In this document: positions 21,429 through 49,498 of the stretch, piece by piece
How the letters are laid out: each line of letters starts with the position of its first letter
Position numbering within the stretch: the stretch's first letter is position 1
Assembly (NCBI GenBank): GCA_963713825.1
Contig: CAVQNG010000003.1
Coordinates: forward strand, 864,001-928,000
Direction: 5' to 3'
Source of the DNA: an uncultured Acidobacteriota bacterium
GTDB lineage: Bacteria > Acidobacteriota > Thermoanaerobaculia > Multivoradales > JAHEKO01
Length of the DNA stretch: 64,000 bases
Position numbers and translations under genes: made by a program
The notes under the pieces: model-generated
Seen by the model: the letters and a program-made list of their open reading frames with translations, nothing else
Told to the model about the DNA's origin: nothing
Database searches by the model: none

Positions 21429-22062
21429 TCCCCGCTTCGGACTCGCTCACCCGCGCCTTGCGGCGCTGGCCGAGCCAGGTTGCCAGACCCAGCAACGACC
21501 CGAGAGCCAGGAAGGCCCCCGGTGGCAGGATCATGAGGATCAGGGTGGGGAACGACTCGGGTACCAGCTGAATACCGAACCAGGAGCCGTTGCCGAGAAT
21601 TTCACGCACTGTTGCGACACTGGCAAGAGCGAGCAGAAACCCGAGTGAGACCCCGATGGCGTCGGCCAGCGCCGCTTTCGGGCCCTGCTTGGAGGAGCAG
21701 ACCTCACACCGGCTGATGATCATGCAATTGACGATGATCAGTGGCACGTAAGGTCCCAACAGCTTGCTCATCGGGTAGGCGAAAGCCGCCAGCGTTCGAT
21801 CGGCGATGGTGACGAAGGTGGCGATCGTCAGGGTGAAGACGAGGATTCTCAGGTGCGGTTTGAGAAGGTGGCGAATGAGGCTGGTGATCAGGTTGGCGCA
21901 GATCAGCACGAAGGCGGTGGCACCCACCATGGTCATGGCCGGTTTCATGGCGGCCGTGACGGCCAGGGTGGGGCACAGTCCCAAGAGCTGGCGGTAGACC
22001 GGATTCTCCGGCAGGATGCCGTTCAGGAAGCGCTCGAGCGGTGTTGGTTCATGGACGGGCAT
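21421..22062 (-). CDS. rnfE: Rnf complex subunit E
   Basis: ENPV...[17 protein letters not shown] and LPPGAF. Confidence 0.93.
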
Positions 22063-22732: not shown

Positions 22733-22764
22733 GATTCTTGTGCTCCGTTCCAGGGCCTCTCCGA

Positions 22765-23778
22765 TCAGGCGTCGACGGGTAGTCCACCGAGAGGCTCGGG
22801 AATCGTCACGCGGTTGATCAGGGGAACGACCGCGTTCATCAGCAAGACAGCGAAGACCACTCCCTCCGGGTAGTTCGAAAACAGTCGGATGACAACGACC
22901 AGAGCACCGAGTCCGGCCCCGAAGATCACCTGGCCGCGGCCTGTCAGCGGGCTGGTCACCGGGTCGGTGGCGATGAAGAAGGCCGAGAAGACGAGGGCAC
23001 CGCTCGTCAGATGCTGCAGCACAGTCAGCGGGGTCGCGGGCATCAGGAGATTGGCCAGGCCTGCCACGACAGCAGCCGAGGCGAGCATGCTGATCGGAAT
23101 CAGCCACACCGCCGAGCGTCGGAGGCAGAGATAAAGCCCTCCCACGAGACAGGCCAGAACACTGGTCTCACCCAGCGAGCCGTTGGCGTTGCCGACGAAG
23201 AGAGCCCAGAGACCAGGTAGCGAACCCGAGAGCTCCTTGGCTGCCGTCAACGGTGTGGCCTGGGTGAGGATCTCGAGCCCTGTCCCAGACCGCACGTAGG
23301 CGGTGGCGCCCAGGGACGCGGCGAAGCTGATCATCACGAAGGCTCGCCCCACCATCGCCGGGTTGAAGATGTTCTGACCCAGGCCTCCGAAGGCCGCCTT
23401 GCCAAAACCGATGGCGACCACCGAAGCGACAGCACCGACATACCAGGGGGCGCTCCAAGGAAGGGAGAGGCCGAGAATTACTCCGGTAACGATGGCCGAG
23501 GCATCCTGGAGAGAGGGCCTCGAGCCTCTCCAGAGGCTGGTGATCGCTTCCACGGCTAGGCAGCTCACCACGCAGATGCCGACCTGGAAGACGGCGTACC
23601 AGCGAAACAGGTAGAGCGCCATGGCGAAGACGGGAATGAGCGCGATCAGGACGTCGACCATCAGGCGCCGCGTGCTCAACCCGGTGCTCGACAGGTGAGG
23701 CCCTGGAGCCACTTGCAGGCCTGGCTCCACGGGTGCGTCCTGCGGCGGAGAGGCAGCTTTGTTGGTGGCTTCTACCAT
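22765..23778 (-). CDS. rnfD: Rnf complex subunit D
   Basis: FGGLGQNIFNPAMVGR, TQATPL, GSLGETS, ATDPVTSP and YPEGV motifs. Confidence 0.93.
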   Translation of the reverse strand: MVEATNKAASPPQDAPVEPGLQVAPGPHLSSTGLSTRRLMVDVLIALIPVFAMALYLFRWYAVFQVGICVVSCLAVEAITSLWRGSRPSLQDASAIVTGVILGLSLPWSAPWYVGAVASVVAIGFGKAAFGGLGQNIFNPAMVGRAFVMISFAASLGATAYVRSGTGLEILTQATPLTAAKELSGSLPGLWALFVGNANGSLGETSVLACLVGGLYLCLRRSAVWLIPISMLASAAVVAGLANLLMPATPLTVLQHLTSGALVFSAFFIATDPVTSPLTGRGQVIFGAGLGALVVVIRLFSNYPEGVVFAVLLMNAVVPLINRVTIPEPLGGLPVDA

Positions 23779-23794
23779 GGCTTCATTCCGCTCT

Positions 23795-25162
23795 CTACAC
23801 TCGAGCTGCAACCAGGTGGGCCTTGCCCATTCGGATGAGCTGCACCAAGGGGATTTGAGCCGGGCACTGGTACGCGCAGCAGCCGCATTCCATGCAGGTG
23901 TTGATGTGGTAGCGCTCGGCCAGAGTCCAGGCGCCTTTTCGGGCTGCCAAAGCGATTCTCGTTGGCACGAGATTCAAGGGGCAGGCATCGACGCAGAGAC
24001 CGCAGCGCACACAGGCGGTTTCCTCGAATGTCTGAAGGTCGTCCCGCGTCAAAACCGTGATGCCGCTGGTGCCCTTGGTGACGGGGGTGTCGAGGTCACC
24101 CAGGGTGAACCCCATCATCGGGCCACCCGCGAGAACCCGCGCCGCCTGCGAGGTGATCCCACCAGCGAGCTCGATCAACTCGCCATAGGAGATGCCGATT
24201 GGTGCAAGGAGGTTCTTTGGCTGCACCACGCCTCGCCCCGTAACCGTGACGACGCGATGCGTCATGGGTTTGCCCCGCAGGACAGCTCGTGCAATGGCAG
24301 CTGCCGTCGCCACGTTGACGACAACCACTCCGACGTCCAAGGGCAGACCGGCGGCCGGGACGTTGCTGCCGACGAGGACGGGAACGAGTTGCCGTTCAGA
24401 GCCTTGCGGGTACTTCGTTCTGACGAGTCGGATCTCGATGCCGGTGCTCTCTGCAGCCTTCGAGAGAGCTTCGGCGGCTTGCCTTTTGTCGTCCTCGATG
24501 CCGATGATGATCCGCCGTGCGCCGACCGCAGAGGCAGCCAACAAGGCACCGGTGATGACCGGCCGAGGGGCCTCCAGCATCAAGCGATAGTCCGCTGTCA
24601 GGTACGGCTCGCACTCACAACCGTTGACGACCAGCGTTTCGATGGGCCTGTCGGGGTTGGCAGCCAGCTTGATGTGGGTTGGAAAGGCGGCGCCCCCCAT
24701 CCCTACAAGCCCGGCGTCTCTGACGGCCTGGAGAATGAGATCGGGCCTCGGCAGGTCGAGCCTGAGGGTCGGCCACTCTCCGCCATAGGTGTCGTCGAAG
24801 AGGGCCTGTCCCTCGAGTTGCTCATCGCCGGCCTTGATCGGGACCGTTGGCACGCGACGGCCGTTGGGCAACGTGGCGGCGGATTCCTTGGCCACCTTGC
24901 CGGAAATGCTGGCATGGACAAAGGCGGAGACCGGAGCCTCGGACTTGCCGATCAGGTCACCGGCGACCACTTCGTCCCTGGATTTGACGACCGCTTCGCA
25001 GAGAGCCCCGACATGTTGCAACAGAGGGATGCGGACCTGTTTGGGCGTCGGGACGACCTCGATCGGCTGGTCGCGGGCCAGTTGCTTCGCGGCGGCTGGG
25101 TGAATGCCACCGGAGAAGCTTCTTCGCCCCGGCTTGACCGGTTTGGGTTGGGCGACGCTCAT
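23795..25162 (-). CDS. rnfC: Rnf complex subunit C
   Basis: GLVGMGGAAFPT, NGCECEPYLTAD, KYPQGSE, GGPMMG and two 4Fe-4S motifs. Confidence 0.95.
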   Translation of the reverse strand: MSVAQPKPVKPGRRSFSGGIHPAAAKQLARDQPIEVVPTPKQVRIPLLQHVGALCEAVVKSRDEVVAGDLIGKSEAPVSAFVHASISGKVAKESAATLPNGRRVPTVPIKAGDEQLEGQALFDDTYGGEWPTLRLDLPRPDLILQAVRDAGLVGMGGAAFPTHIKLAANPDRPIETLVVNGCECEPYLTADYRLMLEAPRPVITGALLAASAVGARRIIIGIEDDKRQAAEALSKAAESTGIEIRLVRTKYPQGSERQLVPVLVGSNVPAAGLPLDVGVVVVNVATAAAIARAVLRGKPMTHRVVTVTGRGVVQPKNLLAPIGISYGELIELAGGITSQAARVLAGGPMMGFTLGDLDTPVTKGTSGITVLTRDDLQTFEETACVRCGLCVDACPLNLVPTRIALAARKGAWTLAERYHINTCMECGCCAYQCPAQIPLVQLIRMGKAHLVAARV

Positions 25163-28479: not shown

Positions 28480-29070
28480 CTAGGGACCCAGGCCTTGCAC
28501 GAAGCTACCGGGGTCATCGGCGATGGCCGCGGCGAGAAACTCGTCGAGGCGACCATCGACGGAGACGACTTCCAGCTCGTAGGCATCGAGTGAGACGACG
28601 CACAGGCTGCGGATCGAGCCGCTATCGTCTTCGCGGGAGATCACCCAGGTCCGCTCATCGAGGTCCCTCTCCTTGACGACCACAGTCCAACCGACCTGCT
28701 CCAGCCGGTGCTGCAGAACAGAGAGGCTTCTGGGTGCCGGGTTGTCGGGAGGCGAGACCACCCGATACGTTGCGACGTCGACGCGCTTGAGACTCGCGAT
28801 GAGCTGGCGCTCGGTGCTGCCCTTGGGACTCGTGAAGCGGAGAACCTGTTTGACGGCGCCCATCGAGATTCGACCCAGGTGGATGTGGCTCTCGCGCTCG
28901 AACTGGGCGCCGGGAAGTTGTTGCTCGAGCTCCAGGCGTACCTGCTCTGCGGTCGGGCTCTGCTTGCAGCCGACCATCAGCAGCGCAACCATCGTGGCCA
29001 CGGAGAGGACGAGAAGTTGGAGTCGTTCGCGGCTGCGAACCGTCAGAAGTGGAGTCGCCGCAACGCTCAT
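28480..29070 (-). CDS. DUF4252-like lipoprotein
   Basis: Lipobox LMVGC; GWTVVVKERD...LCVV...VVSVDGRL pattern. Confidence 0.7.
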   Translation of the reverse strand: MSVAATPLLTVRSRERLQLLVLSVATMVALLMVGCKQSPTAEQVRLELEQQLPGAQFERESHIHLGRISMGAVKQVLRFTSPKGSTERQLIASLKRVDVATYRVVSPPDNPAPRSLSVLQHRLEQVGWTVVVKERDLDERTWVISREDDSGSIRSLCVVSLDAYELEVVSVDGRLDEFLAAAIADDPGSFVQGLGP

Positions 29071-29600
29071 TCGACAGTGACCTCGGGAAGATCCAGGCCC
29101 GACATGAGACTCCCCAGTTGGTCCGGGTCGATGCGTCCCACCAGGTTGAGGACGATGACTTCCCCGTCCTCGATCGCCAGCACCGTCAGACCCTGCAGGT
29201 CCCCTTCGTCTTCACGGCCGTAGATGTGGACCTCCTCGCCCTCGTCCCGGGTCAGGATCATCCTGTACCAACCCATGTTCTCGAGCATCGTGACCCCGGT
29301 GTCGAGCCCCTTCCGAATGGCATCGGCCTGCAGGCGGTCCGTCGGTGCAATCTGAACGCGGATGGCTTCGAGATTCTTCATCACCTGGGCGAACTCGGGG
29401 TCGTCGTCCGCCGCCACCTTGCCGATCAGTCGCAGCATGGCGCCGCGCAGGTTGATCTCCACGCTCAGGTCGTCCGGGGACAGGAACTGCAGCTCGTCGA
29501 TCGGAAAGTAGCCGGGATGCTCTTCGATGGGCTGAGCGTGGAGCGTCGAGGCCAGCAAGGCCATCGAAAGCAGGAGGATGGAACGTCTGAGCCGATGCAT
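29067..29600 (-). CDS. DUF4252-like secreted protein
   Basis: Signal peptide; VEINL, GWYRMI...EEVHIY and VLNLVGRIDP motifs. Confidence 0.75.
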   Translation of the reverse strand: MHRLRRSILLLSMALLASTLHAQPIEEHPGYFPIDELQFLSPDDLSVEINLRGAMLRLIGKVAADDDPEFAQVMKNLEAIRVQIAPTDRLQADAIRKGLDTGVTMLENMGWYRMILTRDEGEEVHIYGREDEGDLQGLTVLAIEDGEVIVLNLVGRIDPDQLGSLMSGLDLPEVTVE

Positions 29601-30208
29601 CACGAACTCCTTGTCCTGTCGTTGAGAGACCGATAGTCGGAGACGGGGCCGCTCTTCGGAGCCGCGGTTTCGGGGGCGTTCAAGGAGCGGCTGAGACCAC
29701 GGGCCGCGGGCTCGACCACGCGTTTCTGGACCACGTCCTCGCGAAGATCCCTGGCAGCTCGATGGGTGAGCTTGTCCAGGTAGGCGATTGCTAGCCGGGC
29801 CTCTTCGGTAGCGATCTCCACTTCGGCTGAGTGCTCTGGAGGAGCGGGCTCCTGACTCGGCATGAGGACCATGACCGCGAACAGGGCCGCAGCCGCGGTG
29901 GCGCCGACCGCGATCCAAGTGGGACCTGGTGCTCGAAAGAGGTCGAGCCATGACCGACGACGGGACTCGTTGCGTCGCATGGTTACCAGGACGGAGTCGA
30001 GAACGTGCTGCGGTGTGTCCAACTCCGGCAACCCGCGCAGCTCCTGCCTGATCTCGGTGGCCAGGCGAACCTGTCTGGCGCAAGCGGGGCAGATTTCGAG
30101 ATGCTCTTGAAGAGCCGTCGCCTCGGTCCGCTCGAGCTCTTTATCGACGAACGCCTCGATGCGAAGCTGGAGGTTCTGGCATTGAGTCTTGTCATCCGGT
30201 CGGGACAT
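29600..30208 (-). CDS. Membrane-anchored zf-HC2 anti-sigma factor
   Basis: HLEICPAC followed by a single TM helix; downstream of the ECF gene. Confidence 0.88.
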   Translation of the reverse strand: MSRPDDKTQCQNLQLRIEAFVDKELERTEATALQEHLEICPACARQVRLATEIRQELRGLPELDTPQHVLDSVLVTMRRNESRRRSWLDLFRAPGPTWIAVGATAAAALFAVMVLMPSQEPAPPEHSAEVEIATEEARLAIAYLDKLTHRAARDLREDVVQKRVVEPAARGLSRSLNAPETAAPKSGPVSDYRSLNDRTRSS

Positions 30209-30716
30209 GGTCGTACACCCTTCCTAGCTGCTTGCGGAGCCGTTGCCGTCCCCGGTGGAGATAGACCCTCACTGTGTTGAGGGGCATCTCGAGAATGTCG
30301 GCGATCTCTTGATACTTGAGCCCCTGGATCTCGCGCAGAATGAGGACACTGCGCATCGGTTCGTCGAGTTTGCGAAGTGCGGCCAGAAGGTGCTTTCGGA
30401 AATCACTGGCTTCCGCCTTCGCTCCCGGATCGGGGCGATCACTCGTCGCCTGGTTGGTGGCATGGCCTTCGGGATCCGGAACCATGTAGCGGGACGTGGA
30501 GCGTCTCTTGCGCAGGAGGTCGTAGCACGCATTCCGCGTCACTCTGGTGAGCCAAGGCTCCAGCCGCTCAGCGTCGAGCTTGTGCCAGTTCTGCCAGAGT
30601 CGAAGAAGAACTTCCTGCACGACATCCTCCGCTTCAGACGGGTTGCCCAGAAAGTAGTGGGCGAAGGAGAAGACCCTCCTCTGGTGTCTCGCCACCGCCG
30701 CCTCGAAACCCGTCAC
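30192..30716 (-). CDS. ECF RNA polymerase sigma factor (SigW-like)
   Basis: AEDVVQEV, WLTRVTRNACYD and LREIQGLKYQEIA...TVRVYLHRGR. Confidence 0.94.
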   Translation of the reverse strand: MTGFEAAVARHQRRVFSFAHYFLGNPSEAEDVVQEVLLRLWQNWHKLDAERLEPWLTRVTRNACYDLLRKRRSTSRYMVPDPEGHATNQATSDRPDPGAKAEASDFRKHLLAALRKLDEPMRSVLILREIQGLKYQEIADILEMPLNTVRVYLHRGRQRLRKQLGRVYDHVPTG

Positions 30717-30740
30717 CGTGAATTCGCACTCCTCTTGACC

Positions 30741-30768
30741 AGACGTAGGAGGCCCCGGGAAAGTTACA
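30741..30768 (-). promoter_or_regulatory. Autoregulatory ECF promoter TGTAAC-N17-CGTCT
   Basis: Directly upstream of the GAGGAG RBS and the ECF start codon. Confidence 0.7.
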
Positions 30769-32371: not shown

Positions 32372-33154
32372 TCAGAGATCCTTCTCGTCGACGACCGGCT
32401 GGAAGCTGTTCTGGACCGCCGAGTGAAGGTCCTTGGCCAGGGTCTTCCGATCACCACCCTGGAACTGTCGATCACCGAAGGCGACCGTGGCGTCGATGCG
32501 GCGCAGCTTGAAGAACTCGAAAGCATGGGGGACGAACGAGGCCCCGCCCCACCAGCACACGGACAGGTGAGCGGGTTGCTCTCGCTCTGGAGTCCGGTAG
32601 CTCAGAGACGCGTATGAGACGGGCAGGTTGGATCGCGCTGCGGGCTCGAGGAGAGCGGGTCGGAAGGGCATCACAGAAGCACCGGAAGAGCTGGTCCCTT
32701 CGGCGAAGAGAATGACGCCCCGCCCGTGGCCGAGCTGTCGCTCGATCTCTCGCATCACGCCGGGGATCTGCCGCCGTATCTCGCGATCGATGAAGATGGT
32801 CTCCACCGATCGACAGAGAAAGCCGATGGCCGGCCAATCGGAGATCTCGGCCTTGGCCACGAAGACGCCTCCCACGAGACTGCCGAGGACAGCTATATCC
32901 ACATAGCCGAGGTGATTCGAGACCAGCAGGAAAGGGGCTTTGGGGGGGGCGCCTACAACATTGAGCCGTACTCCCAAAATGATCAACAGGCCTCGGGACC
33001 AGGTCTTGAGGATGAAGCTCTTCCACCGTGCTGCCAGGTGGGGAGACGCAAAAGTGAACAGGAAACCAAGGTGAAGGGTCACTTCGACGCCGAAGGTCCA
33101 GAGGCTGACCAACCCGATCTTGAGCGACGCCCGTAGCCACTTCATAAAGCTCAC
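32372..33154 (-). CDS. Lysophospholipid acyltransferase (PlsC/OlsA family)
   Basis: SNHLGYVD (NHxxxxD), FVAKAE, FIDR and FAEGT motifs. Confidence 0.92.
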   Translation of the reverse strand: MSFMKWLRASLKIGLVSLWTFGVEVTLHLGFLFTFASPHLAARWKSFILKTWSRGLLIILGVRLNVVGAPPKAPFLLVSNHLGYVDIAVLGSLVGGVFVAKAEISDWPAIGFLCRSVETIFIDREIRRQIPGVMREIERQLGHGRGVILFAEGTSSSGASVMPFRPALLEPAARSNLPVSYASLSYRTPEREQPAHLSVCWWGGASFVPHAFEFFKLRRIDATVAFGDRQFQGGDRKTLAKDLHSAVQNSFQPVVDEKDL

Positions 33155-33303
33155 ACCGAACCTCTCGCTGGGCCCTCGGAAGAGGCTCCGACCTCTCCCA
33201 AGAGCTTCTGCTATCGACGGCGACAGTTTACTCTGGCAACTTGGTCTTCGAGGGTTAAGTCTGATTCAATGGGGCAACATTCGGCCGACAGGAGGCAGCA
33301 CCG

Positions 33304-34938
33304 ATGAAGAAGGTCCGAGTCGCAAATTGGAACGAGCTCGAGGATCGCAAGCCGACCCATGCGCTGGTTGCCGGGGTCGATCTCGTCGTCACGCGCCTCG
33401 ATGCCGAGGTCTCGGTGCTCTATGGGCGTTGCCTGCATCGGGGGGCGCTGATGGCCGATGGCTTCGTTCGGGGAGAGGACCTGGTCTGTGGGGTCCACTT
33501 CTGGGATTATCAGACTCACTCCGGCATCAGCTCCTACAACCCCAAGGAGTGTCTGCAGAAGTTCGCAGCTTGGGTCGAAGAAGGCGGGGTCTGGGTAGAC
33601 GCTGACGAGATCGCAGCCTGGGAGCAGCGTAACCCACAGAACTTCGACCGCAACAGCTACCAGGGTGCCTACCAGGACCCCCACGGAACACCGGTAGAGC
33701 CCCATGTCCGCCTTATCCGGCAGCTAGCCGATGACGGGTTAGAGCAGCTGGGCCACCATGGACCGATGGCAGCGATGGGAGTTCCCTTGACGGAGCTGCC
33801 GAGCTGGGATGACCTCCAGTTCGTCACCGCACAGCTCGCTCGACTGCCGCAGCTCGACGAGGTTCCCATTGGCACCGAGTTGGTGATCGGCCCCAAGGCG
33901 GCAAAACCCCTGACGCTAGAGATTCCGATCTTCGTGTCGGACATGAGCTTCGGCGCCCTCTCTTTCGAGGCCAAAGTCGCCTTGGCGAAGGGGGCCGAGC
34001 TGGCTGGCACCGGCATCTGCTCGGGAGAGGGTGGCATGTTGCCCGAAGAGCAGGAAGCCAATAGCCGGTACCTTTACGAGCTGGCCTCGGCCCGTTTCGG
34101 ATTCTCGATGGACAAGCTCTCTGCCGTGCAGGCCTTCCATTTCAAGGGTGGGCAGGGGGCGAAGACCGGCACAGGCGGGCATCTGCCGGGCTCCAAAGTG
34201 CAGGGCAAGATCGCCAAGGTGCGAGGTCTCGAGGAAGGCGAGGCGGCCATCTCTCCGGCCCGCTTTCCAGGCTGGGAGAGTCTCGACGACTTCCGCGACT
34301 TCGCCATGCAGGTTCGCGAGGCTACCGGGGGTATTCCCGTCGGCTTCAAGCTCTCGGCGCAGCACATCGAGGAGGATCTGGATGCGGCATTCCAGATCGG
34401 GGTCGACTACGTCATCCTCGATGGCCGGGGCGGAGGCACCGGAGCGGCGCCCCTGATCTTCAGGGACAACATCTCGGTGCCGACACTGCCCGCCCTGGCG
34501 CGGGCCCGTCGGCATCTGGACCAGCGCGGCAAGAGTGGCGAGGTCACACTGATCATCACCGGAGGCCTGAGAACCCCGGCTGATCTCGCCAAGGCTCTTG
34601 CCCTGGGGGCAGACGGGGTCGCGGTCTCCAATGCAGCGCTTCAGGCCATCGGATGCCTGGGGATGCGCGCCTGTCACACCAACAACTGCCCCGTAGGTAT
34701 TGCGACCCAGAAGGAGCATTTGCGGGCCCGATTGCCCGTGGAGGAAGCGGCGCAACGACTGGGGAGATTCTTCTCCGCCTCCGTGGAGTTGATGGAGCTC
34801 CTGGCGCGCGCCTGCGGTCATACTCATCTGAACCAGTTTCGGATCGACGACCTGACGACCTGGAAACGAGAAATCGCCCTTCTTACCGGTGTCGATTTCG
34901 GTGGCGTCGTGCAGTTGTCCGAAGACGACGGGGTATAG
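33304..34938 (+). CDS. Rieske domain fused to a glutamate synthase FMN-binding domain
   Basis: Rieske CLH...CGVH; SDMSFGALS, SGEGG, QGAKTGTGGHLP, DGRGGGTGAAP and the 3Fe-4S motif CLGMRACHTNNCP. Confidence 0.92.
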   Translation: MKKVRVANWNELEDRKPTHALVAGVDLVVTRLDAEVSVLYGRCLHRGALMADGFVRGEDLVCGVHFWDYQTHSGISSYNPKECLQKFAAWVEEGGVWVDADEIAAWEQRNPQNFDRNSYQGAYQDPHGTPVEPHVRLIRQLADDGLEQLGHHGPMAAMGVPLTELPSWDDLQFVTAQLARLPQLDEVPIGTELVIGPKAAKPLTLEIPIFVSDMSFGALSFEAKVALAKGAELAGTGICSGEGGMLPEEQEANSRYLYELASARFGFSMDKLSAVQAFHFKGGQGAKTGTGGHLPGSKVQGKIAKVRGLEEGEAAISPARFPGWESLDDFRDFAMQVREATGGIPVGFKLSAQHIEEDLDAAFQIGVDYVILDGRGGGTGAAPLIFRDNISVPTLPALARARRHLDQRGKSGEVTLIITGGLRTPADLAKALALGADGVAVSNAALQAIGCLGMRACHTNNCPVGIATQKEHLRARLPVEEAAQRLGRFFSASVELMELLARACGHTHLNQFRIDDLTTWKREIALLTGVDFGGVVQLSEDDGV

Positions 34939-35005
34939 CCTGCGATGATTGCACTGCTCCGAACGGGTTGGACAGGTCTTGTGAGTGAGAAAGGAAGCTA
35001 CGCCC

Positions 35006-36994
35006 ATGGCTGAGGACGATACGAAGCCTACCGAAAACACGGGTCGCGTCTGGGAGAAGGCTCTGGACACCGAAGAGCTTGCAGAAGGTCGGGTTCAGGC
35101 GGTGACCTGCCGCCATCAGACGGTATGCATGACCCACTTCAAGGGCCAGTTTGCCGCCCTGGACAACGCCTGCCCGCATCAGGGAGGGCCGCTGGGCGAA
35201 GGTTCGATCGAGGAGGGTCTCCTGCGGTGCCCCTGGCATGGTTGGGATTTCGATCCTCTGACCGGCAAGGCTCCCGGCTTCGATGACGGCGTGGCGACAT
35301 TTCCCGTCGAAGTTCGCGAAGACGGCATCTACGTCGGATTCGACGAGGCCGAGACGCACGCGACGACCGTCTCGGATGTCATGGTGGAGACCATGGTCAA
35401 CTGGGGAATCCGTCATGTGTGGGGCATGGTCGGGCACTCGAATCTGGGGCTGGCGGACGCCGTGCGGCGGCAGACGAAGACGGGCCGCCTCGCCTACTAC
35501 GGAATCCGCCACGAAGGTGCGGCATCGTTCGCGGCATCGGCCTACGGCAAGCTCACGGGTCGCCCAGCAGCCTGCCTGTCGATCGCCGGACCCGGCGCGA
35601 CGAACCTGCTGACAGGGCTGTGGGACGCCCACGTCGATCGATCTCCCGTGCTGGCGCTAACGGGCCAGGTGGACACGCAGGTTCTGGGTCCGGGGGCTTT
35701 TCAAGAAGTGGACCTTTCGGCTGCATTCGGAAAAGTGGCGCAATGGAGCCAGCTGGTCCTGCAGACCAGCAAGCATGTCGAGCTCGTCAACTTGGGCCTG
35801 AAGAGCTCCATCCTGAATCGCGGTGTGTCCCACCTCATCTTCCCAGACGAAGTGCAGACCCTCGACGCACCCGAAGGCGTCGCGGCAGGTGGGCCGGAAG
35901 GTCGCATTCCGAAGCGTGAGATCATGCCGCCGGCTGAGTCCATTGAGAGCGCGTTGGCGCTCCTGGGTAGCTCGAAACGGCCAACGATCATCGTCGGACA
36001 CGGAGCCAGTTCTCATATGGAGCCTGTCCTCACGCTGGCGGAGAAGCTCTCCTGTCCGGTCATCACCACTTTCAAGGCCAAGGGGCTGATCTCCGACCAC
36101 CACCCTCTGGGCTGCGGCGTCCTGGGGCGCAGTGGCACCCCCATCGCCAGCTACTTCATGAACGAAGCGGACTGTCTCCTGGTTTTCGGTGCCAGCTTTA
36201 GCAACCACACCGGCATTACCCCAAAGAAGCCCACCATCCAGGTGGACTTCGACCCCATGGCGCTGGGCAAGTTCCACCAGGTCGAGGTACCGGTCTGGGG
36301 CGAGATCGGGGTCACCGCCGAGATCCTGGCCAGTTCCCTGCCGGACATCGTTCATGCCGAGAGTCAGCGCGAGTCGATCGCCGAACGTTGGGCGATCTGG
36401 CGCCAGGAGAAATCGAAGCGCATGGGCGAGGGCCGAGGCGAGGGAATCTCCTCGGCGGCTATCTTTGCCGCCCTGACGAGACAAGTAGCGGAGAACGCCA
36501 TCATCGCCGTGGACGTGGGCAACAACACCTACTCCTTCGGGCGTTACTTCGAATGCCAGGATCAGGCTGTTCTCATGTCCGGGTATCTGGGCTCGATCGG
36601 GTTTGCCTTTCCCGCTGCCATGGGTGCGTGGGCGGCAACCCAGGAAGAGGATCCCCGGTTTCAGGGCCGCCCGGTCGTCTCGGTCTCGGGTGATGGCGGC
36701 TTCGGCCAGTACATGGGCGAGCTCACCACAGCGGTCAAGTACGGCATGAACATCACCCATGTACTGCTCAACAACAGCGAGCTCGGCAAGATCTCGAAGG
36801 AACAGCGTGCCGGCAGCTGGGACGTGTGGCAGACGGATCTCCACAATCCGAACTTTGCCAGCTACGCTGAGCTCTGTGGCGCACTGGGTATTCGAGTCGA
36901 GGACGGCACCGAGCTCGACGAGGCCCTCGGTCGAGCTTTGGCCCACGAGGGGCCGGCCCTGGTGGAGATCATGAGCGATCCCGAGCTCATTTGA
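35006..36994 (+). CDS. Rieske domain fused to a ThDP-dependent pyruvate oxidase/acetolactate synthase-like enzyme
   Basis: Rieske CPHQ...CPWH; RHEGAASF, GPGATN and the ThDP motif GDGG-x24-NN. Confidence 0.92.
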   Translation: MAEDDTKPTENTGRVWEKALDTEELAEGRVQAVTCRHQTVCMTHFKGQFAALDNACPHQGGPLGEGSIEEGLLRCPWHGWDFDPLTGKAPGFDDGVATFPVEVREDGIYVGFDEAETHATTVSDVMVETMVNWGIRHVWGMVGHSNLGLADAVRRQTKTGRLAYYGIRHEGAASFAASAYGKLTGRPAACLSIAGPGATNLLTGLWDAHVDRSPVLALTGQVDTQVLGPGAFQEVDLSAAFGKVAQWSQLVLQTSKHVELVNLGLKSSILNRGVSHLIFPDEVQTLDAPEGVAAGGPEGRIPKREIMPPAESIESALALLGSSKRPTIIVGHGASSHMEPVLTLAEKLSCPVITTFKAKGLISDHHPLGCGVLGRSGTPIASYFMNEADCLLVFGASFSNHTGITPKKPTIQVDFDPMALGKFHQVEVPVWGEIGVTAEILASSLPDIVHAESQRESIAERWAIWRQEKSKRMGEGRGEGISSAAIFAALTRQVAENAIIAVDVGNNTYSFGRYFECQDQAVLMSGYLGSIGFAFPAAMGAWAATQEEDPRFQGRPVVSVSGDGGFGQYMGELTTAVKYGMNITHVLLNNSELGKISKEQRAGSWDVWQTDLHNPNFASYAELCGALGIRVEDGTELDEALGRALAHEGPALVEIMSDPELI

Positions 36995-37018
36995 CGTGAA
37001 TGCCGCTAGGCTCTGTCA

Positions 37019-37894
37019 GTGACAAGCGAAGGCAGGTCGACGGTGTGTCTGGCGGTATTGGTCGGTCTGTGGTTGGTCGGCGCGCTGGCCAGTGCGCAGG
37101 CAGCACCACCGGCGGTCGAGGTCGATTCCTTCCAGGGCACTGACTCTGCTTGGACTCTGGAGCACGATGTCGAAGCCCAGCGAGTGCTCGCTCGTCTGGA
37201 CGACGGCACAGAAGTGGTCCTGGAGATCGACTACGGCGGCCCGGAAGACGACAGGCATCTCGTAGGCATCACACCAATTCTTGCCGGGAAGCGTTTCGAA
37301 GGGGCCTTCTGGGGCTCGACGGCACCGTTGCTTTATCCGCAGCTCGACCCAGAAGAGCACCAGATCGAACGCCTGGACATCCGTGCGGAAGGTGCCGCTC
37401 TATGGGTGAGGTTCGTTGGGGGCAGTTACCAGATCCTCGACCCGGCGGGCCCTGCGGAACCCCTGTTCATGGAGGCGATCTTTCGCCGCCAGGACGATCG
37501 CCTCGTGGTGAACCTCTACGGCCTCTACTATCTACTACCGTCTCTGGCAAGCACCCGTATCGAGCTCGTGGTTGCTGGTGAGCGGTTGACCCGCACAGTC
37601 GAACCCGGTGAGCAGGAAGGAACCAGCCTGGTCTTCGATGGCTCCCAAGTCATCGCCACGGTCAGCGGTGCCGAGAGCCGGCACCTCGAGTACTTCGATC
37701 ACGTCACTCGGGTGGAGATCGACGACTCCCGTTTCGGGCGGATGATTCTCGAGACCTATGTAGAGAGGCTGCAACTGCAAGTGAGTCGACAGCCCGGCGT
37801 CGCCATGGAGCTGTTCGAGCTGGATTTCGATCACACGTTCAAGGATCGAGGACAGCGACGGGTCATGAGCCGTCTTTCGATCGAGCTGCGCTGA
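37019..37894 (+). CDS. Hypothetical secreted protein
   Basis: Signal peptide ending ASA; beta-rich 291 aa; TAGGCT-N6-GTG start. Confidence 0.65.
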   Translation: MTSEGRSTVCLAVLVGLWLVGALASAQAAPPAVEVDSFQGTDSAWTLEHDVEAQRVLARLDDGTEVVLEIDYGGPEDDRHLVGITPILAGKRFEGAFWGSTAPLLYPQLDPEEHQIERLDIRAEGAALWVRFVGGSYQILDPAGPAEPLFMEAIFRRQDDRLVVNLYGLYYLLPSLASTRIELVVAGERLTRTVEPGEQEGTSLVFDGSQVIATVSGAESRHLEYFDHVTRVEIDDSRFGRMILETYVERLQLQVSRQPGVAMELFELDFDHTFKDRGQRRVMSRLSIELR

Positions 37895-37947
37895 TCTCCG
37901 GGTGCTCTGCTATCTTGGTAGTCGACAAGAACCACAGGAGGGGCATC

Positions 37948-40601
37948 GTGATTGGTGAGACCCTGGGTCACTACCGAATCGTCCAGCTGTTGGGCAAGGG
38001 TGGCATGGGTGAGGTCTACCTGGCCGAGGACACCAAGCTCGATCGCCAGGTGGCACTCAAGATCCTGCCGGCCGAGCTGGCCGGAGACAGCGAGCGGCGA
38101 GCCCGCTTCGAGCGGGAGGCCAAGGCTGTCGCTTCCCTGAACCACCCCAACATCGTCACCATTCACTCCGTCGAGGAGGACAAAGGCTTCCACTTTCTCA
38201 CCATGGAGATGGTGCACGGCAAGTCCCTCTCGGAGCTGATTCCCGAGGGTGGGCTGACGCTGACGCGATTCTTCGATTTCGCGACTCCCCTGGCTGACGC
38301 CGTCAGCACGGCGCACCAGAACGGTGTGACCCACCGGGATCTGAAGCCCGACAACATCATGATGGGCGACGATGGCCGCCTTCGAGTGCTGGATTTCGGC
38401 CTCGCCAAATTGGCCGAGACCGCCAGTGGCGAAGAGGGCCCCGCCGAAGCGCCGACCCAGTCGGTGACGCAGGAGGGCAAGGTCCTGGGGACCGTGGCTT
38501 ACATGTCGCCGGAGCAGGCCGAGGGCAAGGGCGTCGACCATCGCAGCGACATCTTCTCCCTGGGCATCATCCTCTACGAGATGGCCACGGGCCAGCGTCC
38601 CTTCAAGGGCGACACGAGCCTCTCGGTCCTGTCCTCCATCCTGCGGGACACGCCGGGTTCGGTGACCGAACTCAACACTCGACTCCCCCGCCAGCTGGGT
38701 CGCATCGTTCGCCGCTGCCTCCAAAAGGAGCCGGAGCGGCGCTATCAGTCGGCTGTCGACCTGCGCAACGAGCTCGAAGAGCTCCAGGAAGAAGTAGCGA
38801 CCGGAGAGGTGACGCCCGTGGGCCAGGCAGGTCTGCACGCTGCCGCAGACAGTGGCTGGAAGAAGCTTCTCGTGGTTGGTGCGTTGGTTGTGGGCGCCGT
38901 GGGTCTGGGCTTAGGCCTGTGGAGCCTCGTCGGCCGAAAGAAACCCGCGGCGGACCCCGACACAGCGAGCTTCGAGTCGATGCAGATCCGGCCTTTGACA
39001 AGCACTGGCAACGCATTGATCAGTGCCATTTCACCGGACGGCAAGTACGTAGCCTACGTGGACGACGATGGCAGGAACAGGACGCTCAGAGTCAAGCAGG
39101 TCGCTACGGGCAGCGATGTCGAGATTGTCAGCCCAGGAATCATCTGGTTCGCCGATGTCCGTTTCTCACACGATGGCGATTACGTCTTCTACGTCGTGCA
39201 GCCCGAGTTCGATGCCCCTGGTGAGCTCTATCAGGTGCCGACCCTGGGTGGCACGCCACGCAAGCTGTTCGGGGATATCGCTACGGGGGTCAGCTTCTCG
39301 CCTGAAGGTTCCAAGGTCGCCTACTTCAAGGGTGAAGGAGGTCAGTTCGGAAACGAGGTCTGGGTGTCCAACGTGGACGGCAGCGATGTGAAGCAGCTAG
39401 CGTTGGTGGAGCCACCCAAGTTTTTCCTCGGCACTCCGGCCTGGTCACCGAATGACGATCTGCTGGTCATGGTCATGGCCGATGTGAGCGAGTTCAAAGG
39501 ACAACTCGTCGGAATCCCTAAGGGTGGTGGTGACCTGAAGCCGCTCGTGGATCGGAAGTGGGATGGTCTGGGCGAGGTGGCATGGCTGCCGGACGGATCG
39601 GGCGTCGTGTTCACAGTCTTCGAGAGAGGTTTCAGTGGGTTTCAACTGTTCGATATGGACTATCCATCGGGCGAGCTGCACCGGATTACCAACGACGTCA
39701 ATTCCTACATCGGCGTGAGCCTGACCGCCGACGGGCAGCGACTGGCGACCATCCAAGGAGATCGCCGGGCGGAGGTCTGGATTCAGGCTGTGGATCGAGA
39801 AGACTCGTTACGCAAGGTCGATACAACGACGGGCGCCAGCAATGGCGCCGACGGCGTGGCCTGGACAATGGACAACAGGATCGTCTATTCCGCCGACGAG
39901 GGTGCAGAACGGCATCTCTGGTTGATGAACGCTGACGGTAGCGAGGCGAGGCGACTCACGGTGTCTGGGACTCGGCACGCAGAACCCGCAATTCAGCCCG
40001 ATGGCCAGAGCATCGTGTTCGAGTCGTGGGGGGGAGATCAATTCGGCATCTGGTCGATCCGATTGGACGGTACAGGACTCGAAAAGCTGACACCGGATGG
40101 CGCTTTTGGCACTCGAGCGGCTGATCTCTCCCGATGGCGAGTGGCTGCTCTACGAGACCATCTACGAGGGGGACTTCCAGATGGTTCGGCAATCACTGGC
40201 GACTGGAGAGACGCGAGGTCGTACTCACAGGGGATTGCCACTCACCCTCTTGGTCGCCGGATGGATCGCGAATGGTTCTGCATTTCCGAGCCGGAGGGGA
40301 ACGCCTTTGGAAAACCGGGATTCTCACCCCTGACGGCAGCGAGCTTTTGGGGACCTACGACTTCCATTCCGAGCTCGATTCGCCATGGAGTGCCGATGGG
40401 CAGAGCCTCTTCCATGCCGAGACCAAGGATGGCGTCACCAACATCTATCTGATGCCCCTCGACGGGGGTGAGCCGCAGCAACTGACCGACTTCAGCGAGG
40501 GGGAGATCTTCGACTTTGACGTCTCGCCAGACGGCTCGACCCTCCTCATCGCTCAGGGCCGCCGCGTCCGCGACATCGTCCTGATCGACGACTTCCGCTA
40601 G
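37948..40601 (+). CDS. Ser/Thr protein kinase with TM helix and TolB-like/PD40 beta-propeller (two frameshifts near 40115 and 40212)
   Basis: GKGGMGEV, HRDLKPDN, DFGLAK and YMSPEQ motifs. SPDG repeats continue across three frames to the stop at 40601. Confidence 0.9.
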
Positions 40602-40610: not shown

Positions 40611-42626
40611 TCAGGGCACGCTGCTCGACCAAGCAGTGAGATTGCCGGACTCGAATCCGTCCGTGAAGATCCTGGCGTCCACGACCGTCACGGTCACAGT
40701 TCCCAGGTTCGAATCGGTCCAACCATCCCAGGCGGCGAAGGTGAAGGTGTCGACGCCGCTGAAGCCGTCGAACGGAAAGTAGGTAGCTGTCGTACCGTCA
40801 AGGGCCACCGTGCCGTTGGCTGGCTGCGAGACGATGCGCAAGGTCAGCAGGTCGCCATCCTGGTCGCTGGCCGCCAAGGCAATATCCACTGGAATTCCAT
40901 TGTCGGCGTCTGTAGAGGCGTTCTGAACGACGGCCGGATGATTGGGACTCGCATCCTCGCTGTCGGGACCATCGTGGCAAGCGTAGCAACCGATCCGAAA
41001 TCCGCGCCAGAAGTGCTTGTCGCCGAAATCGTCGGTGTCGGCGACCCAGTCGGCCTGGGAGTAGGAGAGCACGGTCCCCTTGTAGTCGGTGCCGTGGCAG
41101 CCCTGGCAGGGTGTGTCGTCATGGTCGGCGGCGTCTTTGTGACCCTGGATCCAACTCTGGCCGATTGGGTGCAGGCCATGTGGACCCCCGCTGACGGTGT
41201 TCGGAGTCGTGAGGTGGCAAGCGGTGCACTCCGCCAGTGTGCCCTCATGACCCTGGAGGTCCTGGTTCTGGATGTTGTCGTTGGGATGCGAGGCCGGGAA
41301 GATGGCGTGCGTCGAGCCGTGACAGGCGAGGCAGGACAGCTCCCCGTGGCCGAAGGAGAAACGATAGAGCGAGAAGCCGGCCGACGGAACGTCGGGATCC
41401 GTGGCAAAGGTCTGATTCACCGCCTGCCGAACGTCGTCGTTGGGTTCAAAGACCGAGTCGTAGCGGATCTGACCGTTGTTGTCGATGGCGGTGCCTGTGT
41501 GACAGCTCTGGCAGTTGGGCTGCTCGAGCCAGCCGACCCGGTTCTCGTCTCCGACATCACTCATCTTGCCGTGGCAACCCTGACACTGCATGGCTAGCGA
41601 GCCATCGGCGGCGACTGCCTTGCCCATTGCACCCCGGAGGCACCGGGTATCACTCCCCGGATGACAGCGGTAGCAGGCGGTCCGATTGTCGCTCGAATCC
41701 AGCGACATGCTGTTGGTCGGGTCGTTGACGTAGGCGTGAAGGCCGTGCACGGCGGTGGTCAGCGGCGGGATACCCGCGAGGCCCGTGCCGGGCAGCGCGT
41801 TCGAGCTATGGCAGCCGGCACAAAGCACCGAGATGCCGTCAGTGGCGACCGTAGGGTAGAGGCCTCCGGCGTTGTATCCCATGGTGGCGAGAGCGGCGGT
41901 GTACTTCGCGGACCCACCGTTGTAGTCGTCGTGGAGAAGCAGAATGTTGAGCCGGTAGTCGCGCTCCGGATCGGCATCCCAGATCCACCCACCAAAGGGC
42001 TCGGCATCGTCCGGGGAACCCGAGGCGTGGCAGGCCGAGCAATCCATCTCGTCGGAGACCGGCAGCACGATCGCCGTTTCGGCCAGAAGTGCCCCGCCGT
42101 TGTCTCGCGCCACGAGGCGCATCATTGGGTAGTAGTTCTTCTTTGCGGCATCGTCGTGAGGGGTGATCGGAATCCCGTCGCCGACGAACCAGTCGTGCGT
42201 TGCCTCCCAGTGCATGGGCTGCGGCGTGTTGGCGGCACCCGGCATGGTGTTGCCAGTCAGGCCTTCGTCGACGGGCAGGGCGACACCGAAGAGATCTTGG
42301 GCGTGATCCCAGAAGTTGGTCTTGCCGGCCGAAGTGATGTTGATCGAGCCTTGTGGGTCGGCGATGCCTTCATAGGTAACCGAGACGCCGGCCGGATTGG
42401 TGACCAGGTCTCCGTTCTCGTCGATGAGGTGGGCCTGAATGGTGTTGAAAGGCGGCAGAATGGAGAACACCTCGTAGTCGGCATCCATGCAGTGCATTCC
42501 CAGATCGTTCCAGCCTACGAGAGTCCAGTCGCCGCCGCCGGCCTCGACCGAATCGACGACCCTGCCGACGAGACTCGCGATGAACAACAGAGCGGACAAT
42601 CCGAGAGTGATATTTCGAAGTTTCAT
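40611..42626 (-). CDS. Secreted 9-heme cytochrome c with an Ig-like domain and IFxDGFESG tail
   Basis: Signal peptide, WNDLGMHC, nine CxxCH motifs, cadherin/Big_9-like DQDGD...PANG...DTFTF, and C-terminal IFTDGFESGNLTAWS. Confidence 0.92.
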   Translation of the reverse strand: MKLRNITLGLSALLFIASLVGRVVDSVEAGGGDWTLVGWNDLGMHCMDADYEVFSILPPFNTIQAHLIDENGDLVTNPAGVSVTYEGIADPQGSINITSAGKTNFWDHAQDLFGVALPVDEGLTGNTMPGAANTPQPMHWEATHDWFVGDGIPITPHDDAAKKNYYPMMRLVARDNGGALLAETAIVLPVSDEMDCSACHASGSPDDAEPFGGWIWDADPERDYRLNILLLHDDYNGGSAKYTAALATMGYNAGGLYPTVATDGISVLCAGCHSSNALPGTGLAGIPPLTTAVHGLHAYVNDPTNSMSLDSSDNRTACYRCHPGSDTRCLRGAMGKAVAADGSLAMQCQGCHGKMSDVGDENRVGWLEQPNCQSCHTGTAIDNNGQIRYDSVFEPNDDVRQAVNQTFATDPDVPSAGFSLYRFSFGHGELSCLACHGSTHAIFPASHPNDNIQNQDLQGHEGTLAECTACHLTTPNTVSGGPHGLHPIGQSWIQGHKDAADHDDTPCQGCHGTDYKGTVLSYSQADWVADTDDFGDKHFWRGFRIGCYACHDGPDSEDASPNHPAVVQNASTDADNGIPVDIALAASDQDGDLLTLRIVSQPANGTVALDGTTATYFPFDGFSGVDTFTFAAWDGWTDSNLGTVTVTVVDARIFTDGFESGNLTAWSSSVP

Positions 42627-42718
42627 GGCATCTCCCTTCCATGTGCCGACCCGAGTGCCGCGGCGATGAGCTGCCGGGTTGCGTTGTGCCGAGAGGCTGT
42701 GGCCTTGATACTGGGGGG

Positions 42719-42788
42719 AGTATGTTAGCTGCCAACGGACCTGACTGTGAAGAAAGTCACACCGTCCCATCCCCGCAACCGTTGGCAG
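42719..42788 (-). promoter_or_regulatory. CRP/FNR-family class II promoter for the cytochrome gene
   Basis: Perfect TGTGA-AGAAAG-TCACA at 42746-42761, centred 29.5 bp upstream of the first base of minus-strand CATACT (42724-42719). A 10-bp inverted repeat flanks it at 42729-42738 and 42779-42788. Confidence 0.7.
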
Positions 42789-42849
42789 AGAATGATCGAA
42801 ACTTTCCTCTTTCGGGAGCGGTAGTGTCGAAAAGAGGGAGGACACGGGT

Positions 42850-43347
42850 ATGTGGAGACATTCTCTTGTGAAGGGCTGCGCTGTTCTGGCGATTTTCGGG
42901 CTGGTGGTCGCACCGGCGCTGGCCAAGGAGAAGAAGGACACCATCACCATCGACATCGAGGACTCCGAGGGCAGCAAGACGTCGATCTCTCTGACGACCG
43001 ACCTCGTCTCCGGGGCGCTCGAGGGCATGGTCGACGAAGACCTCGAGTGCAAGGGAGACATCGAATCCGACACACGGGAAATGCTCGAGTACTTGAGCAA
43101 GAAGGGTAGGGGCTCGCGCTATACCCTCGAGAAAGAGGACGGCGAGGTCATCAAGGCTCATCGGCGCAAGGACCAACTGGATCTCGAGATCCTCGGCGAC
43201 GACGAGGACCCGACGCACGTCTCCATGCCCTGGCTCCTCGCCGAGTGCATGCTCGGCAACAAAGTGGCCGCCAAGGAGCTCGAGAAAGCCGACGGCCTCA
43301 AGTTCAGCGTCAAGAAAGACGGCGGAGTCGAGCTCCGCGTCGAGTGA
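42850..43347 (+). CDS. Hypothetical secreted protein
   Basis: GGAGG RBS, signal peptide (ALA) and strong codon bias; preceded by CGAAAC-N17-GGTAG. Confidence 0.8.
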   Translation: MWRHSLVKGCAVLAIFGLVVAPALAKEKKDTITIDIEDSEGSKTSISLTTDLVSGALEGMVDEDLECKGDIESDTREMLEYLSKKGRGSRYTLEKEDGEVIKAHRRKDQLDLEILGDDEDPTHVSMPWLLAECMLGNKVAAKELEKADGLKFSVKKDGGVELRVE

Positions 43348-49184: not shown

Positions 49185-49190
49185 GGTGGC

Positions 49191-49451: not shown

Positions 49452-49470
49452 TTGGATCCTCTATCTCCGA

Positions 49471-49498
49471 TGCATCATAGTTGCATCAATATGATGCA
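49471..49498 (-). promoter_or_regulatory. Operator of TA module 1
   Basis: TGCATCATA...TATGATGCA inverted repeat with a third TGCATCA inside, overlapping a minus-strand TATGAT. Confidence 0.7.

Follow-up and report, generated by a model that had tools for sequence, protein, structure and literature searches.

Two adjacent genes encode enzymes fused to Rieske domains

The DNA analyzed here (the window) is a stretch of 64,000 nucleotides from an uncultured Acidobacteriota bacterium (contig CAVQNG010000003.1, positions 864,001 to 928,000 of the forward strand). Our subject is a pair of genes within it, the first encoding a protein that resembles part of glutamate synthase (GltS) and the second a thiamine diphosphate (ThDP) enzyme that resembles pyruvate oxidase (Table 1). 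Both genes lie on the + strand, 67 nt apart if the ThDP gene starts at ATG 35006, and we found no terminator-like site between them. An initial annotation of this DNA had described two co-oriented neighbors, each fronted by a Rieske domain (motifs CLH...CGVH and CPH...CPWH), the first reduced to the flavin mononucleotide (FMN)/[3Fe-4S] core of GltS and the second ending right after its ThDP domain, at DPELI. Our analysis of open reading frames (ORFs) and Pfam domains bears out this description in each respect. Both enzyme cores are of known kinds, the arrangement is new, and the pair is real, widespread, very strongly conserved, and apparently unstudied.

The Rieske domain of the GltS-like protein scores 41.7 bits against a Pfam gathering score of 20.3 and carries the complete CxH...CxxH set (C43-L-H45 ... 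C62-G-V-H65). The Pfam scan also matched the FMN domain, and the GATase_2 (E ≤ 0.01), Glu_syn_central/PF04898, and GXGXG domains of GltS were absent. The protein reaches 143.1 bits against the NCBIfam GltB model NF008730, below the equivalog cutoff of 1047, and a sequence search of the PDB matched it to the FMN domain of GltS only. Its AlphaFold model (pLDDT 77.4) returned GltS as the top folds in Foldseek, with flavocytochrome b2 as the next fold class. The three cysteines C451, C457, and C462 align one to one with the cluster cysteines of the GltS structures 7MFM, 2VDC, and 1EA0, which include that of Azospirillum, and the Lys and Arg of the GltS segment QGAK...R are kept as K287 and R307. 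Our full-text literature search turned up no paper naming the roles of the GltS Lys, Arg, and Gln residues.

For the ThDP enzyme, the longest frame begins at GTG 34985, which is probably not the true start; ATG 35006 is the likelier one because it is preceded, 8 nt upstream, by AAAGGAAG (34990-34997) and because the closest homologs are 663 aa long. The Rieske domain scores 56.2 bits against the same gathering score, with ligands C63-P-H65 ... C82-P-W-H85 (numbering of the 669-aa frame), and lies outside all PDB matches, which begin at about residue 128. The best of these was Escherichia coli PoxB (3EY9, E 1e-74), whose chain residues 4 to 527 of 572 align with residues 128 to 664. Since the alignment stops at that point and the protein terminates 5 residues later, 7 residues past the TPP_C match, the C-terminal membrane-binding and activation segment of PoxB is missing. 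The match to NF006591 likewise ends at model position 530 of 574, and the Rieske domain is the only module that the enzyme has in addition to those of PoxB. The four top NCBIfam models are pyruvate oxidases or dehydrogenases (378, 312, 305, and 292 bits), ahead of acetolactate synthase (273 bits), and the enzyme falls far below the equivalog cutoffs of all of them, including NF006591 (311.8 versus 792 bits) and NF006377 (378.4 versus 742 bits). With the AlphaFold model (pLDDT 89.4, pTM 0.86), Foldseek gave TMt values of 0.90 for PoxB and 0.83 to 0.89 for Corynebacterium glutamicum PQO. The ThDP enzyme is of the PoxB/PQO type and probably also carries flavin adenine dinucleotide (FAD), to which only the ranking of FAD-dependent models ahead of acetolactate synthase points, and that indirectly.

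Both Rieske domains are best matched by models of the ferredoxin type (HcaC, AndAb, MocE, and NirD), at scores far below the equivalog cutoffs, and neither has the additional two cysteines seen in high-potential Rieske proteins; as a rule, Rieske domains without that pair are of low potential. The two domains are just 25% identical to one another, which argues against a recent duplication.

Table 1. Positions of the gene pair, its domains and motifs, and the directly flanking features within the window
Feature	Position	Strand	Details
Rieske-GltS-like gene	33304..34938	+	544 aa; AGGAGG at 33290-33295, 8 nt 5' of ATG
Rieske [2Fe-2S] domain, GltS-like protein	33313..33543	+	Residues 4-80; ligands C43, H45, C62, H65; PF00355, E 1e-10
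GltS FMN "synthase" domain	33892..34812	+	Residues 197-503; PF01645, E 5e-91, 306 bits
[3Fe-4S] motif C451-x5-C457-x4-C462, GltS-like protein	34654-34689	+	Within FMN domain
Rieske-ThDP gene	35006..36994	+	Likely ATG start, ~662 aa; longest ORF from GTG 34985, 669 aa
Rieske [2Fe-2S] domain, ThDP enzyme	35051..35275	+	Residues 23-97 of 669-aa frame; PF00355, E 3e-15
ThDP core	35366..36970	+	TPP_enzyme_N 128-245, M 320-445, C 510-662 (Pfam)
Upstream intergenic region	33155..33303	+	AGTTTACTC 33225-33233 and AGTCTGATTCAATGGG 33258-33273, conserved in three close relatives
OlsA-like (lyso-ornithine-lipid type) acyltransferase, divergent	32372..33154	-	PF01553; NCBIfam OlsA 136 bits, cutoff 300
291-aa ORF directly downstream	37019..37894	+	Matches no family; conserved only in closest metagenome-assembled genome (MAG)

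Both families are widespread and strongly conserved

Thousands of database relatives exist for each protein. Among the matches listed, 120 per protein, all share the architecture of the window protein at 73 to 96% identity, with a single ThDP match shortened so that it lacks TPP_C, and the named sources are Acidobacteriota, Gemmatimonadota, Planctomycetota, Gammaproteobacteria, and Acidimicrobiia. When a collection with a single genome for each species was scanned, the ThDP protein had at least 589 relatives, the best 80 of which (65 to 87% identity) provide the 80 loci counted throughout this work. These 80 come from Acidobacteriota, Gemmatimonadota, Nitrospirales, Nitrospinaceae, Poribacteria, Myxococcota, Rhodothermales, Trueperaceae, Planctomycetota, Spirochaetales, Gaiellaceae, sulfur-oxidizing Gammaproteobacteria, and marine Leptolyngbya-type cyanobacteria. 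Sponge symbionts, sulfur-oxidizing symbionts, nitrite oxidizers, marine cyanobacteria, and sediment Acidobacteriota are among the carriers, and DNA closely resembling this stretch was seen in sediment and salt-marsh metagenomes from 12 studies.

Between phyla, both families keep 65 to 80% identity, with mean column identities of 70% in the GltS-like alignment (53 sequences) and 75% in the ThDP alignment (89 sequences). All four Rieske ligands and all three [3Fe-4S] cysteines of the GltS-like protein are invariant in 53 of 53 aligned homologs from many phyla. In the ThDP enzyme, the same holds, again across many phyla, for the four Rieske ligands, E177, and G569-D570-G572...N597 in 89 of 89; the GDG-x26-NN pattern is the ThDP/Mg motif and the Glu the catalytic residue. 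Because the residues of the Rieske, [3Fe-4S], and ThDP motifs are invariant in these homologs, the architectures are far beyond chance.

The two genes are linked within and between genomes

In 40 of the 80 loci, no more than 1.8 kb separates the ThDP gene from a GltS-like gene, and three gene orders occur. The GltS-like gene precedes the ThDP gene directly in 13 loci and with one gene between them in another 13, the ThDP gene comes first in 7 loci directly and in 5 with one intervening gene, and the two are divergent in 2. No GltS-like gene was found in the other loci, 23 with at least 5 kb of flanking sequence on each side and 17 with a short flank. For 30 of these 40 partnerless loci, we searched the whole genome, in each case a MAG of unknown completeness, and found the partner elsewhere in 20 (18 near full-length Rieske-GltS-like genes and 2 fragments); 1 of the 30 held a variant minus the Rieske part, and 9 gave no match of any kind.

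Of 401 Acidobacteriota genomes that were sampled evenly, 29 carry the Rieske-GltS-like gene (27 near full-length and 2 cut), 27 carry the Rieske-ThDP gene, and 21 carry both. Here, a GltS-like carrier is one whose match runs from the first five residues, which leaves out two matches starting at residue 46 or 83, and the ThDP carriers exclude G106 (cut at the N terminus), G159 (core only, 59%), and G227 (35%). Under independence, about 2 double carriers would be expected, so that co-occurrence is roughly tenfold above expectation, a contrast inflated by relatedness among the genomes. The genes are adjacent in 12 of the 21 double carriers and unlinked in 9. Together with the adjacency in half of the 80 loci, this co-occurrence contradicts one of the observations that the initial annotation had named as fatal to its idea, namely, that the two architectures would rarely be neighbors.

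The divergences of the two proteins also run in parallel: across 29 pairs, their pairwise distances correlate with an r of 0.65, a value reached in 0 of 2000 permutations, and their mean p-distances are equal (0.31 and 0.30). This correlation is consistent with inheritance of the two genes as a unit, and shared descent alone could yield it. A search for longer proteins found a single one with both cores, a public protein of 1195 aa (P0243), as a candidate for a Rosetta-stone fusion; we rejected it as a frameshifted read-through artifact because its residues ~400 to 550 are Arg/Pro-rich and out of frame and replace the last third of the GltS-like part. Prediction of a complex between the full GltS-like protein and the Rieske domain of the ThDP enzyme (residues 20 to 125) gave a score of 0.00 and returned no verdict, a result that counts on neither side of the question of binding.

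Accessory genes and variant front ends

The pair is often accompanied by further genes. The most frequent encodes a DUF5996-like protein of about 290 aa and often lies between or beside the pair; a hidden Markov model (HMM) detected it in 34 of the 80 loci, in every case on the same strand as the ThDP gene and no farther than about 3.5 kb from it. Its relation to DUF5996 is strong in some loci and weak in others, and the proteins share the invariant motifs WPHHFD and PYFYV.PWP. The profile found nothing below an E value of 0.27 among PDB sequences and only DUF5996 clusters in the Atlas, and our literature search found no paper mentioning DUF5996. In the genome of the window, no DUF5996 gene adjoins the pair, but the same contig carries a copy at a distance of about 740 kb. 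Among Acidobacteriota, strong matches occur in 10 of 36 carriers versus 2 of 19 noncarriers and are adjacent to the pair in 2 only, which marks DUF5996 as facultative in this phylum. The 291-aa ORF directly downstream of the pair in the window had been a candidate for the missing DUF5996 gene and was rejected, as it neither matched the HMM of 20 DUF5996-like neighbors nor showed BLASTP similarity; it probably stands outside the module.

Two other neighbors are potential electron acceptors. In 6 of the 80 loci, from six lineages, a Ferric_reduct membrane domain (heme b, MsrQ-like) is fused to a third Rieske domain, and a conserved ORF of about 278 aa comes next; no homolog of this fusion was found in the genome of the window. 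In two cyanobacteria whose genomes yielded no GltS-like gene, the gene after that for the ThDP enzyme encodes an FMN_red (flavodoxin-like) protein. Rarer neighbors of the pair include NhaP-type Na+/H+ exchangers (7 of 80 loci), carbonic anhydrase (3 of 80), PlsC/OlsA-like acyltransferases (9 of 80, to which the window adds its divergent gene), and aminotransferase, PALP, peptidase, and stress-type genes. The OlsA-like acyltransferase is a recurrent neighbor of the pair and only a possible member of the module.

The N-terminal domains themselves vary. A paralog of the GltS-like protein carries tandem CDGSH domains in front of a GltS FMN domain whose core is 65 to 70% identical to that of the window protein, where Pfam places a Rieske domain, not CDGSH, ahead of the FMN domain. 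Genome G002 (G002:C1) encodes an 884-aa protein composed of Fer4_19, two CDGSH domains, Rieske, and ThDP parts (L087:1457-4111, - strand) and, about 835 kb away, a 507-aa tandem-CDGSH GltS FMN enzyme (L086:1549-3072, - strand). By their predicted domains, these two enzymes are a version of the pair with a longer Fe-S "wire," and the N-terminal Fe-S domains behave as exchangeable electron-transfer modules. The swaps of front ends, the invariant ligands, and the loss of the PoxB membrane segment all argue that the N-terminal domains serve as electron-transfer plugs.

In a gammaproteobacterial MAG (L075:11947-19672, + strand), the pair heads a long same-strand string that continues with three small ORFs, the Ferric_reduct-Rieske gene, the 278-aa ORF, an OlsB-like N-acyltransferase, an OlsA-like O-acyltransferase, DinB_2, and an alpha/beta-hydrolase-VTT protein. 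The gene content of this string hints at a link to aminolipid synthesis.

A proposed electron-transfer module and its alternatives

We propose that a conserved, soluble electron-transfer module has this pair as its core, with the ThDP enzyme acting as donor and the GltS-like enzyme as one of its acceptors, a reading to which we assign a probability of about 0.45. In this scenario, the ThDP enzyme would carry out the oxidative decarboxylation of a 2-oxoacid, most likely pyruvate, and the electrons would exit singly through its N-terminal low-potential Rieske domain of the ferredoxin type. They would be taken up by the Rieske domain of the GltS-like enzyme, which appears to occupy the place where ferredoxin or GltD supplies canonical GltS, and would then pass through the [3Fe-4S] cluster to FMN. 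Oxidation of the 2-oxoacid could thereby drive the reduction of an imine at the FMN, in the simplest case the formation of glutamate from 2-oxoglutarate and NH3 without NAD(P)H or free ferredoxin. Depending on the lineage, the ThDP enzyme might serve several acceptors, namely, the GltS-like enzyme, the FMN_red protein, and the membrane cytochrome-b-Rieske unit, with the DUF5996-like protein as a frequent accessory of the module. The architectures, the intact cofactor motifs, the strong conservation, the adjacency and co-occurrence, and the interchangeable Fe-S front ends are direct observations; the FAD content, the direction of electron flow, the substrates, and the physical contact of the two enzymes are inferences.

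Several considerations favor the ThDP enzyme as the donor. ThDP chemistry yields strongly reducing electrons, the Rieske domain adjoins the core in every variant of this enzyme, and three different potential acceptors are found beside its gene. Moreover, the [3Fe-4S]/FMN site is the point of electron entry in all GltS that have been characterized (PMC8097209).

A number of observations weigh against this proposal. The GltS-like family has an invariant histidine, His293, at a position that is Gln in the three aligned GltS structures, and the PGEGG motif of GltS reads TGTGG in the window protein; because of these two replacements, the substrate may not be 2-oxoglutarate. Lacking an amidotransferase domain, the enzyme would need free NH3, which canonical GltS uses poorly. 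Carriage of the GltS-like gene shows no dependence on canonical glutamate synthase (GOGAT, PF04898), which is present in 13 of the 29 carriers versus 160 of the 401 genomes overall (including genome G049). In the genome of the window itself (96% complete), neither PF04898 nor a second strong PF01645 match was found; that genome holds enzymes of the glutamate dehydrogenase (GDH) type and glutamine synthetase, so that no gap in glutamate synthesis calls for the GltS-like enzyme. Replacement of canonical GOGAT was rejected as a pattern for these reasons, 13 of 29 carriers keeping GltB and the window's own genome having the GDH-type enzymes and glutamine synthetase.

Nor are the two genes always found together: among the 401 Acidobacteriota, the GltS-like gene occurs without the ThDP gene in 8 of 29 carriers, and the ThDP gene occurs without the Rieske-GltS-like gene in 6 of 27, 4 of them in one genus and 2 of the 6 with a CDGSH-type GltS-like gene. 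The link between the two genes is thus real and, because of these single carriers, not obligatory. The initial annotation had viewed the pair as a possible self-contained redox couple, and a redox couple is still the best reading at hand. The architectures and the functional link have held up, but the couple is not self-contained, given the DUF5996-like genes (34/80), the Ferric_reduct-Rieske genes (6/80), the FMN_red genes, and the single carriers (8/29 and 6/27).

The membrane cytochrome-b-Rieske neighbor, for its part, would be just as expected if both enzymes were donors, which also counts against our proposal. Under such an arrangement, both would be dehydrogenases that feed a common sink: the GltS-like enzyme would run in reverse, converting an amino acid such as glutamate to a 2-oxoacid and NH3 with electrons leaving via FMN, [3Fe-4S], and Rieske, while the ThDP enzyme would decarboxylate a 2-oxoacid, possibly the product of the first reaction, and the sink could be the membrane cytochrome-b-Rieske unit or another carrier. 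We regard this arrangement, which corresponds to the second option of the initial annotation, as rather unlikely. The presence of the Ferric_reduct(heme b)-Rieske protein and its partner ORF in the module (6/80 loci, six lineages) speaks for it, since MsrQ/NOX-type proteins move electrons out of the cytoplasm, but in the window the pair stands without such a sink: its own genome has no homolog of that protein, and no conserved acceptor gene adjoins the pair. Independent donors would readily explain the minority of genomes with a single gene. Flavocytochrome b2, the next fold class after GltS, is itself an FMN dehydrogenase with an N-terminal electron-output domain; the physiological chemistry of GltS, however, is reductive, as is established, and low-potential ferredoxin-type Rieske domains would lend themselves more to electron delivery than to taking up electrons from glutamate. 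The neighborhoods offer an aminotransferase and PALP beside the ThDP gene in Poribacteria and others, as well as peptidases as frequent neighbors, although the latter may merely mirror the peptidase-rich genomes of these phyla.

It is also conceivable, if improbable in our estimate, that the two enzymes exchange no electrons at all and are co-regulated in one response, for example, to oxidative, nitrosative, or pH stress, with each Rieske domain having another, unlinked partner and adjacency reflecting co-expression. Neighbors in other lineages would suit such a role, among them catalase, di-heme peroxidase, nitrobindin-like THAP4, pirin/GST/glyoxalase/MarR, YceI, carbonic anhydrase, and Na+/H+ exchangers, but each of these is rare, at 1 to 7 of the 80 loci. 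The low identity of the Rieske domains to each other (25%) and the separation of the genes in 9 of the 21 double carriers are in keeping with co-regulation; the tight adjacency kept in three different gene orders, the co-occurrence at about 10 times expectation, and the joint presence of the CDGSH-fronted GltS-like and Fer4_19/CDGSH-extended ThDP forms in G002 are not. The idea of a shared extracytoplasmic function (ECF) sigma factor promoter, which would have supported co-regulation, failed the conservation test in this lineage, as described below.

Relation to known systems

The initial annotation knew of no characterized pathway with this architecture, and our literature searches found none either. 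In the main texts of articles, neither of the two Rieske fusions, nor the pair as such, appeared as the subject of a study. The ThDP enzyme shares with E. coli PoxB (3EY9/3EYA) and C. glutamicum PQO (9EV3-9EV6) the three-domain ThDP fold, the catalytic Glu, and the GDG...NN motif, whereas its N-terminal Rieske domain, its lack of the 45-residue C-terminal membrane segment, and an identity of 24 to 29% set it apart. Similarly, the GltS-like protein has PF01645, the C-x5-C-x4-C motif, K287/R307, and the fold in common with the FMN domain of GltS (1EA0, 2VDC, 7MFM, 1LLW, and 1OFD), but it differs in its Rieske front, a conserved 90-residue linker, and His293 and in lacking the amidotransferase, central, and GXGXG domains.

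A close relative in architecture is the tandem-CDGSH GltS FMN protein, listed since 2011 as "type 5 CISD" with no function assigned to it (PMC3174974, PMC5859297). Both have a GltS-like FMN core with an N-terminal [2Fe-2S] module, which is of the CDGSH type (3Cys-1His) in type 5 and a Rieske domain (2Cys-2His) in the window protein. The paper by Lin et al. (2011, PMC3174974) is, in its available part, an architecture catalogue, and that part mentions no ThDP partner.

With the Rieske ferredoxins of oxygenases and NirD (HcaC, AndAb, and MocE), the window domains share the best model matches and the CxH...CxxH ligands; they differ in being fused to enzymes rather than free carriers, and the operon encodes neither an oxygenase nor a reductase component. 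Flavocytochrome b2 resembles the GltS-like protein as an FMN TIM barrel with an N-terminal electron-transfer domain and differs in cofactors and chemistry. The likeness of the Ferric_reduct-Rieske neighbor (6 of 80 loci) to the MsrQ/NOX type concerns its membrane part, which is MsrQ-like, with cofactors and chemistry again differing.

Flanking sequences and other features of the window

RNA-library contigs reach only the end of the pair and do not establish its transcription or co-transcription. One metatranscriptome run yielded two contigs of at least 99% identity that cover only positions 36784 to 37100, corresponding to the final 210 bases of the ThDP gene plus 106 bases beyond its end; the other three RNA runs gave short pieces of 90 to 95% identity, which come from relatives.

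In the stretch 28480-30765 (- strand), an ECF sigma factor gene (30192-30716) is followed by a DUF4252 protein gene and a 196-aa ORF, with a promoter-like GTAAC-N17-CGTCT at 30740-30765. Control of the pair by this factor was considered and rejected. A shared pattern, AACTT-N13-TANGTCTG, stands upstream of both the ECF sigma gene (30740-30765, - strand) and the pair (33238-33263), and these two sites are its only matches in the genome; the reversed-pattern control also gave 2. We discarded the idea for this lineage because the two closest relatives do not keep the -35 AAC and because, in the corresponding stretch of the same-genus relative G119, for which no Pfam scan was made, an ORF of the size of an ECF sigma factor is absent. 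A second ECF-type sigma factor (12051-12638) opens the stretch 12051-14065 (+ strand), which continues with a small ORF and a gene of the ornithine cyclodeaminase/mu-crystallin family (13088-14065).

Elsewhere in the window, a cluster for an Rnf-type complex (18648-25162) comprises, on the - strand, an RnfB-like Fe-S protein (19831-20859), an Rnf-Nqr membrane subunit (21421-22062), an FMN_bind subunit (22049-23107), and an RnfC-like subunit (23795-25162), and beside it lies a gene for an ApbE flavin transferase (18648-19829, + strand). At 40611-43100 (- strand), an 829-aa protein combines an MtrC/MtrF-like multiheme cytochrome with bacterial Ig/cadherin-like domains, which makes it a candidate extracellular electron-transfer cytochrome of this sediment Acidobacteriota genome. 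Right after the 291-aa ORF, an 845-aa Ser/Thr protein kinase is fused to PD40/beta-propeller repeats (37915-40452, + strand).

Farther downstream, the G+C content drops from ~0.62 to 0.56-0.58 between 50 and 56 kb. The stretch concerned, 48786-56322, holds PIN-domain genes (48786-49184, - strand, and 49941-50405, + strand), several ORFs with no assigned family, and a gene for an AraC regulator, and by its composition it may be an acquired island. At 58400-62820 (- strand), an unusual 849-aa fusion of thiolase and 3-hydroxyacyl-CoA dehydrogenase (beta-oxidation) adjoins a 620-aa acyl-CoA dehydrogenase.

Significance

The two proteins are among the most conserved of these genomes, and because such conservation goes together with no known function, they point to a real gap in our picture of central carbon and nitrogen redox metabolism. 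A more far-reaching view, which we consider doubtful, is that the pair, its CDGSH/Fer4_19 variants, the FMN_red protein, and the cytochrome-b-Rieske unit together make up a "plug-and-socket" electron network, widespread yet so far undescribed, in bacteria with aerobic and microaerobic lifestyles. An O2-tolerant ThDP/FAD enzyme would there replace the pyruvate:ferredoxin oxidoreductase and ferredoxin of anaerobes, and would mainly supply a glutamate synthase of a third kind, pyruvate-driven, ammonia-dependent, and independent of NAD(P)H and free ferredoxin.

Should both enzymes instead prove to be donors, the pair would represent a new entry of amino-acid electrons into membrane electron transport. 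If, as we propose, the ThDP enzyme passes electrons to the GltS-like enzyme, the pair would constitute a new route from 2-oxoacids to the reduction of amino groups and an O2-tolerant substitute for ferredoxin-linked chemistry.

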